The notes beneath the pieces are model-generated. The model saw nothing but the letters and a program-made list of their open reading frames with translations. It did not search any database and had not been told where the DNA came from. Below, piece by piece: positions 7,809 through 8,051 of a stretch of DNA of 9,406 bases. The stretch lies in IMG/VR virus record IMGVR_UViG_2648501787_000010. One strand, 5' to 3'. Every line of letters starts with the position of its first letter. Position 1 is the stretch's first letter. Both the position numbers and the translations under genes were made by a program. Source of the DNA: a virus. Lineage: Duplodnaviria; Heunggongvirae; Uroviricota; Caudoviricetes.

Positions 7809-8051
7809 TTACCGTTTCCACTTCTTAGGTCGCCCACCACATTTAAGGCTGGTGGGCCTCAGCACCTTGTCGATGCTTTCAGCCAGATTTTTCGATGCGC
7901 CACGCGAGCGTAAAAAACTGACTACCTCGTGTTTTGTGGGGGCTGTTGATTTGTCTTCCGGATCGTATGTTGACCAGAATTCACGATTTGCCATTAACGC
8001 CAGTTGCAGCCCTTCACCGCAGACATTGGATGATTTTTCGTGCCAGACCAT
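7809..8051 (-). CDS. hypothetical small basic protein (80 aa) with C-terminal AT-hook-like GRPKKWKR motif
   Basis: ORF sits between a perfect TATAAT -10 (minus strand, 8112-8117) and a strong terminator, so it is an independent transcription unit. RBS at the first ATG (8049-8051) is weak; an internal ATG at 7992-7994 is an alternative start. Confidence 0.45.
   Translation of the reverse strand: MVWHEKSSNVCGEGLQLALMANREFWSTYDPEDKSTAPTKHEVVSFLRSRGASKNLAESIDKVLRPTSLKCGGRPKKWKR

Follow-up and report, generated by a model that had tools for sequence, protein, structure and literature searches.

What is the 80-residue protein encoded between the integrase gene and alpA of this DNA, and does it take part in the integration or induction of the element that carries it? 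The window, by which we mean the whole analysed stretch of 9,406 nucleotides (IMG/VR record IMGVR_UViG_2648501787_000010), had received a preliminary description in which this reading frame, here ORF80, was a genuine small gene of the integrase module, formed an independent transcription unit and ended in an AT-hook-like tail; a directionality factor or a DNA-architectural protein was suggested.

The host island and the ORF80 gene

The window corresponds to a Gram-negative PICI of the EcCICFT073 type, with its main genes all on the minus strand (ORF list and Pfam). It presents the features by which PICIs are recognised, i.e., co-oriented int, alpA and primase genes together with phage-packaging-related genes, a size of about 10 kb and a specific att site, and its overall gene layout is the same as that of EcCICFT073 (PMC6092414). 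The features relevant to ORF80 are as follows:

8165-9406, minus strand: P4-type tyrosine integrase gene (int), 413 aa, upstream partner of ORF80 (Pfam, NCBIfam NF007246, genome context)
8121-8154, minus strand: four AACCA repeats with end-to-end spacing of 9, 10 and 10 nt (pattern search)
8117-8112, minus strand: perfect TATAAT as putative -10 hexamer, 60 nt upstream of the ATG (sequence)
7809-8051, minus strand: ORF80, 80 aa (ORF list, PGAP, selection, profile match, AlphaFold2)
7772-7804, minus strand: predicted intrinsic terminator, AATAGCGGCC-CCTTGC-GGTCGCTATT followed by TTTTTTT (terminator scan, inverted repeat I6)
7705-7744: two tandem 20-nt repeats, AAAACAGTACTCACCGTTTT / AAAACGGTACTCACTGTTTT (repeat finder families D2 and I1)
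7433-7639, minus strand: alpA, 68 aa, downstream partner of ORF80 (Pfam PF05930, E=5.6e-9; PHROG)
4105-5859, minus strand: D5_N/DUF5906 primase gene (Pfam)
1805-2845, minus strand: capsid-E-like gene, adjoined by a head-decoration-like gene (Pfam)
Minus strand, elsewhere in the island: DUF4222 gene, SSB gene and gene for a Nu1-like small terminase, TerS (all Pfam)

The integrase is composed of Arm-DNA-bind_3, Phage_int_M and Phage_integrase domains (Pfam). AlpA, whose PHROG label is 'excisionase and transcriptional regulator', acts in Gram-negative PICIs as master activator or excisionase and is itself induced by phage (PMC6092414). No RNA family was matched in an Rfam scan of the window. Positions 7400-8200 are 100% identical to 13 E. 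coli chromosomes among the matches listed, and in these genomes the island, of about 10.7 kb, is located between tRNA-Pro/yejM and yejO. Comparison with lineage L002 revealed a mosaic, the integrase module being 74.6% identical and positions 6951-7192 being 97.5% identical; the int-ORF80-alpA block has been inherited as one 74.6%-identical unit and the remainder of the island is mosaic. In another island (L001), in which this block is 100% identical to that of the window, a RepA-type helicase is encoded at 5694-7100, compared with the D5/DUF5906 primase at 4105-5859 of the window. The minus-strand ORF of 346 aa at 6388-7428 is almost certainly spurious; its counterpart in L001 is occupied by genes on the plus strand, divergent from the main operon of the island, which encode a member of the YlcI/YnfO family and a small hypothetical protein. 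The plus-strand stretch concerned in the window is 6599-6943.

ORF80 begins with an ATG and its product ends in ...SLKCGGRPKKWKR. The gene lies 113 nt downstream of the integrase stop codon on the same strand, and alpA follows 169 nt further downstream. PGAP calls exactly this frame, as the hypothetical protein WP_000262088.1, in a strain in which positions 7400-8200 are 100% identical. Between ORF80 and its counterparts in lineages L002-L004, the proteins are 60-65% identical, dN is 0.20-0.29 and synonymous sites are saturated; closer pairs give dN/dS values of 0.06-0.32, and the frame is kept in homologues of other E. coli lineages. Because synonymous sites are saturated while dN is only 0.20-0.29, the substitution pattern indicates that ORF80 is a real gene under purifying selection, and more than a chance reading frame, as had been proposed.

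Copies of the ORF80 type are present in 374 of 5426 complete E. coli genomes (about 7%), always on the chromosome (DNA search), and the three diverged E. coli contexts that we inspected all show the order int, ORF, alpA at tRNA-Pro. Several lineages of this short form, 60-78% identical to one another, keep the frame under purifying selection. The alleles of ORF80 reassort among lineages in a way that favours neither int nor alpA as its partner: L002 and L003 share 96% identity in the ORF and 87% in alpA, and L003 and L004 share 98.5% in alpA and 78% in the ORF. In one E. coli chromosome (NZ_CP054363.1, strain SCU-171; L004, H63), the tRNA-Pro island has a gene of the short ORF80 type, and a gene for a full-length relative (see below) lies elsewhere. 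A 90-aa protein annotated as 'AlpA family' in an assembly of the nematode Cooperia oncophora (P0011) combines the first 42 residues of ORF80 with the last 48 of AlpA; the sequence derives from the same E. coli island by deletion and is a bacterial contaminant of the nematode assembly.

An undescribed C-terminal domain and its tail

ORF80 matched no family in Pfam, NCBIfam, PHROGs or PADLOC. The DUF4224-type relationship considered in the preliminary description fails, since ORF80 matches nothing in curated family libraries: hmmscan against Pfam at E<=1 gave only a spurious match at 0.17 to another family (not DUF4224), and 131 relatives searched against Pfam at 1e-3 yielded no real domain, with one chance match to FBF1. 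The full-length relatives tested also gave nothing against Pfam, NCBIfam and PHROGs. The same description was right in not seeing a classic Xis here. No AlpA, HTH_17 or Xis match was detected in Pfam (ORF80 matches neither PF05930 nor PF12728, nor the PHROG excisionase families; the neighbouring alpA does match). ORF80 resembles RDFs of the Xis/Vis/AlpA type in being a small basic protein of an integrase module, but its AlphaFold2 model is all-helical, with three predicted helices and no beta wing in place of a winged helix, and its island already has an AlpA-family gene next door.

A word-indexed protein search retrieved only 13 E. coli clusters and a few fragments, and it was an exhaustive profile search that revealed the family. 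With a profile of nine E. coli sequences, 618 proteins (cluster representatives at 50% identity) were recovered at E<=1e-3; the source names all read 'hypothetical protein'. These relatives are nearly all 190-290 aa long and match at their extreme C-terminus; the domain ends the protein exactly in 109 of 158 matches, and ORF80 ends 2-3 residues after the profile. The ORF80 frame matches a profile of 40 sequences with E=6.7e-33. On the strength of these matches, ORF80 is the free-standing form of a C-terminal domain of about 60 residues, named here X-CTD. Its profile reads FWSTYDPxDxxTAP ... G.S.N.A.AID.ILRP ... GxRxK, in the order helix, FWSTYDPxDxxTAPxK, helix, G-x-S, helix, (I/V)LRP, about 5 residues, G-x-R-x-K; R65 is invariant, and W26, D30, T36, P38, L47 and A57 almost invariant.

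The AlphaFold2 model of ORF80 (pLDDT 77 overall, 83-93 in the core) predicts a disordered N-terminus, helices at residues 11-26, 40-49 and 54-64, and a floppy tail. For a full-length E. coli member, the model shows a confident alpha/beta domain at residues 1-125 and disorder at 130-160, followed by a C-terminal three-helix domain as in ORF80. Full-length X proteins such as P0211 (231 aa, E. coli) share with ORF80 their C-terminal 70 or so residues (E 1e-26 to 1e-33) and occupy the same genomic slot in PICIs of the same kind. A DNA match to the full-length form is present in only 35 complete E. coli genomes. Clustering of 132 representatives of the family by their N-terminal regions gave at least 48 unrelated groups. 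X-CTD also occurs repeatedly by itself, in stand-alone forms of 57-90 aa from E. coli, Salmonella and Xenorhabdus, which suggests that it works alone. The frame upstream of ORF80 in the window holds no remnant of an N-terminal domain; together with the varied N-termini and the recurring stand-alone forms, this points to X-CTD as the constant, autonomous part of these proteins. What had been overlooked, and emerges from sequence comparison, is that ORF80 consists of just the C-terminal domain found in a large family that is uncurated and tied to the junction of int and alpA. It stands outside Xis/AlpA, DUF4224 and any curated family, and would be a small accessory protein of the integrase module built on a widespread undescribed domain.

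Past the three-helix part, ORF80 ends in a basic tail, RPTSLKCGGRPKKWKR, and the terminal CGGRPKKWKR is present as originally described. Nine E. coli sequences with overall identities of only 66-93% all have G72, G73, R74, P75, K77 and W78, which shows selection on the GGRPKKW tail within this clade. AT-hooks, found for example in HMGA and in the bacterial protein CarD, have a GRP core flanked by basic residues. With GRP at residues 73-75 followed by KKWKR, in a segment predicted to be unstructured, ORF80 fits this motif in its loose definition (GRP flanked by K/R). However, the full R-G-R-P core is absent, as the sequence is G-G-R-P and the Arg before the Gly is missing; moreover, the tail is a single copy at the extreme C-terminus, and GRP gives way to GPRK or GRRxK in most of the family. 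In the wider family (n=254), GRP was found in 49 tails, GPR in 68 and G[RK][RKP] in 99, so that family-wide conservation, as judged from these motifs, is of Gly and basic residues, not of GRP. The term AT-hook-like therefore suits the invariant GRP and flanking K/R of the E. coli clade, but neither a true RGRP hook nor the family as a whole. Across the family the tail is basic (median charge +4) and the core acidic (median -3).

Gene order and transcription signals between int and alpA

The order int, X, alpA was found in every context checked, across Proteobacteria. At six genome loci (Serratia, Erwinia, Enterobacter, an enterobacterial MAG, a gammaproteobacterial MAG and Sedimenticola), a P4-type int, X and an AlpA-like gene of 65-68 aa are followed on one strand by a primase gene and other island genes. 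In E. coli PICIs with the full-length form, int, X and alpA precede genes with pRha, ASH, D5-primase, SSB, ProQ and PerC domains; Pseudomonas harbours the int, X, alpA triad, and in Gilliamella an acetyltransferase gene is inserted between int and X, X being directly upstream of alpA at 146 nt. A second X-CTD subgroup (WPWG...TGPRK) is represented by 66 distinct metagenomic loci, for which the search used subgroup alignments, the 40-sequence alignment being too diverse. An AlpA-HMM match lies within 500 nt downstream on the same strand in 33 of the 50 metagenomic loci with room downstream, most of the others showing by eye a small HTH_17-like ORF, and an integrase gene lies upstream in 21 of the 25 with room upstream. 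No record of the phage collection matched the X-CTD family, and the sole match in the plasmid collection was a 1.4-Mb E. coli replicon; IMG/VR includes many contigs of about 10 kb carrying the short form.

X-CTD was sought in EcCICFT073, EcCIMP1 and CP4-57 and is absent from each. We also considered YfjH of CP4-57 as a relative of ORF80 and rejected it (opposite strand, no domain match). Excision and transfer have been demonstrated for EcCIMP1, a PICI (PMC11773190). Compared with islands that carry X, EcCIMP1 has an Int of 87% identity (to that of an Enterobacter island) and an AlpA of 67-79% identity; its int-alpA gap of 427 nt (L274 26857-27284, E. coli MP1) contains no X homologue or remnant. 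The gene EcCIMP1_002 of the published map, located in this gap, is a different small ORF. Because EcCIMP1, EcCICFT073 and CP4-57 lack the domain, X cannot be universally required for this Int/AlpA chemistry, nor is it in general essential to excision. For the ORF80 protein, a modulatory or element-specific role is more likely.

The strong terminator noted earlier behind ORF80 is present: a stem of 10 pairs (7804..7779) with a 6-nt loop and a T-run begins 4 nt past the stop codon. L002 and L004 have terminators at the same place with a different sequence, and 45 of 115 loci have a terminator-like site behind X, compared with 48 among 504 windows chosen at random. The upstream signals are less clear-cut. 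The TATAAT at 8117-8112 is perfect and is kept in L002, L003 and L004 despite the saturation of synonymous sites in the coding sequence, but the accompanying -35 (GTGCAA) matches at only 3 of 6 positions, and a strict sigma-70 consensus scan of 7300-8400 found no promoter. The promoter attributed to ORF80 is thus reduced to a conserved -10 element. In the gap between int and ORF80 the terminator scan detected no terminator on the minus strand, so that read-through from int is likely; the independence of the transcription unit, bounded by a terminator behind the ORF but by none separating it from int, is consequently not established. From these signals, the best reading is that ORF80 closes the int unit as its last gene and may have a promoter inside that unit. 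Its ribosome-binding site is indeed weak (GAGA, 9 nt ahead of the ATG).

Two repeat arrays flank the gene. The four AACCA repeats lie just past the int stop codon and abut the -10 on its upstream side; the pattern search gave 2 overlapping triple matches, against 0.00 expected in 200 shuffles, and the repeats are largely conserved in L002-L004. They may be a protein-binding array or phased bends. The tandem 20-nt repeats, between the ORF80 terminator and alpA, together make up a 41-nt near-palindrome centred on TTTTAAAA. They are kept in L002-L004, lineages in which alpA is only 68-75% identical, and are a candidate operator of a phage-induced, auto-activated alpA promoter.

Possible roles of ORF80 in the island

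The nearest functional precedent for ORF80 is IOLG of the Vibrio PICMI satellites, by position and by shared partner domains, not by homology to ORF80. In PICMIs, the gene between int and alpA is called iolg, or icg if it does not overlap int, and belongs to one of 13 families; iolg of PICMI115 is required for excision, and the authors proposed that int and iolg are constitutive and alpA phage-induced (Nat Commun 2024, PMC10803314). ORF80 too lies between int and alpA on the same strand of a phage satellite. In contrast, the start of IOLG overlaps the int stop codon (ICG being contiguous), whereas ORF80 is separated from int by its 113-nt gap with the conserved -10, and IOLG-like genes encode about 230-290 aa, compared with 80 aa for ORF80. 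An IMG/VR search with a fragment of the PICMI115 AlpA found nothing, and our iolg-like comparators are the int-overlapping genes of IMG/VR islands at the fis site (L171-L260), gathered via their att repeat.

An int-overlapping ORF of 230-290 aa, together with int and alpA, is present in about 20 of these fis-site islands. Twenty such genes, compared by the C-terminal parts of their products, showed no relationship to X-CTD (HMM E>0.1, hhalign probability <3%), and a resemblance suspected by eye was not borne out by hhalign. Their N-terminal 70 or so residues (LYYPLxEAAxKLGC..DLIHxGAxG) are HTH-like and match the N-termini of nine X-family members (P0048, P0080, P0051, P0079, P0067, P0083, P0124, P0052 and P0044) with HMM E-values of 2.5e-16 to 1e-4; BLASTP between the two sets of N-termini gave values down to 2.5e-10. 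Since the fis-site genes share this N-terminal domain with nine X-family members, the proteins of this slot exchange domains. Seen through these matches, the int-alpA slot is a domain-shuffling network of which ORF80 is one module alone. Because the C-terminal domain is not common to both, the analogy with iolg relies on position and on a domain that ORF80 lacks.

We infer that the ORF80 protein may bind DNA or a partner and may have some effect on recombination. Our tentative preference, with a little less than an even chance of being right, is that ORF80 is an accessory component of the excision-and-induction module formed by the integrase and AlpA. Like Int, and together with it, the protein would be produced constitutively, from the int transcript and the weak internal promoter, and the terminator would keep its expression apart from that of the phage-inducible alpA. 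It could then modulate how the island excises or integrates, or how the AlpA-Int complex is assembled, through its basic AT-hook-like tail on A/T-rich DNA and/or through contacts of its acidic core with Int or AlpA. The earlier suggestion of a directionality factor or an architectural protein is plausible from the position of the gene and from the analogy with iolg (PMC10803314).

ORF80 could instead regulate the induction of the island and not its recombination, by binding the alpA promoter region (the tandem repeats with their central TTTTAAAA) or AlpA itself, alpA being kept silent until a helper-phage product removes the ORF80 protein; if so, ORF80 would supply the repressor or anti-activator that is missing in Gram-negative PICIs. 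These elements have no known repressor, and how helper phages induce alpA is not established (PMC6092414). The conserved repeat/palindrome array between the ORF80 terminator and alpA fits such a regulator, as does the Gilliamella island, where cargo splits int from X only and X is tied more closely to alpA than to int. The numerous unrelated N-terminal regions attached to one constant C-terminal domain would likewise fit variable sensors with a constant output, but ORF80 itself has no sensor domain. Moreover, EcCICFT073 and EcCIMP1 do not have the gene and are yet silent until the helper phage is induced (PMC6092414, PMC11773190), and the independent reassortment of ORF and alpA alleles (L002/L003 and L003/L004) also speaks against a dedicated regulator of alpA, which we consider rather unlikely.

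It is more doubtful still that ORF80 is accessory cargo in a variable slot next to int, such as a helper-phage interference or host-directed factor, playing no part in the integration or induction of its own island. The int-alpA interval is indeed variable, being occupied by X, X-CTD alone, the unrelated iolg families, an acetyltransferase gene, the opposite-strand yfjH or nothing, and accessory genes also adjoin int in Gram-positive PICIs (PMC6092414). However, no PADLOC defence model was matched, and the same domain occupies the same position from enterobacteria to Pseudomonas, Sedimenticola and soil and freshwater metagenomes, whereas cargo normally turns over. It is very improbable that ORF80 is functionless and in decay, as what is left of a full-length X after loss of the N-terminal domain. 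It does align only to positions of about 160-232 of the full-length profile, and its ribosome-binding site is weak, but the short form is intact in 374 complete E. coli genomes, against only 35 that give a full-length DNA match, purifying selection maintains the frame in all of its several diverged lineages, other genera have short forms as well and no N-terminal remnant lies upstream. The remnant reading is largely refuted by the substitution pattern.

A more ambitious proposal, to which we give only a small chance, is that X-CTD is a new DNA- or partner-binding module that couples the constitutive integrase unit to the inducible alpA switch in Gram-negative satellites and in other islands with P4-type integrases. 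The variable N-terminal domains would be sensors for different signals from helper phages or the host, and stand-alone copies of the ORF80 type would act as a constitutive or competing form.

The ORF80 gene is ordinary in size and context, and it is its placement in this family that makes it of moderate interest. ORF80 exposes a large family that is in no domain library and has been skipped by published satellite maps. This family occupies the junction of the constitutive int unit and the inducible alpA, where two questions are posed for Gram-negative PICIs and satellites (PMC6092414, PMC10803314): how the helper phage switches on alpA, and what besides Int and AlpA builds the excision complex. 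The short form of about 7% of complete E. coli genomes offers a minimal 80-residue handle on the conserved domain. Should ORF80 prove dispensable, X-CTD would still be a new domain for annotation, and the int-alpA interval would be marked as a slot for domain shuffling. If the coupling proposal is true, X-CTD would fill the place of the missing regulator in these elements, either of alpA induction or of the directionality of excision.
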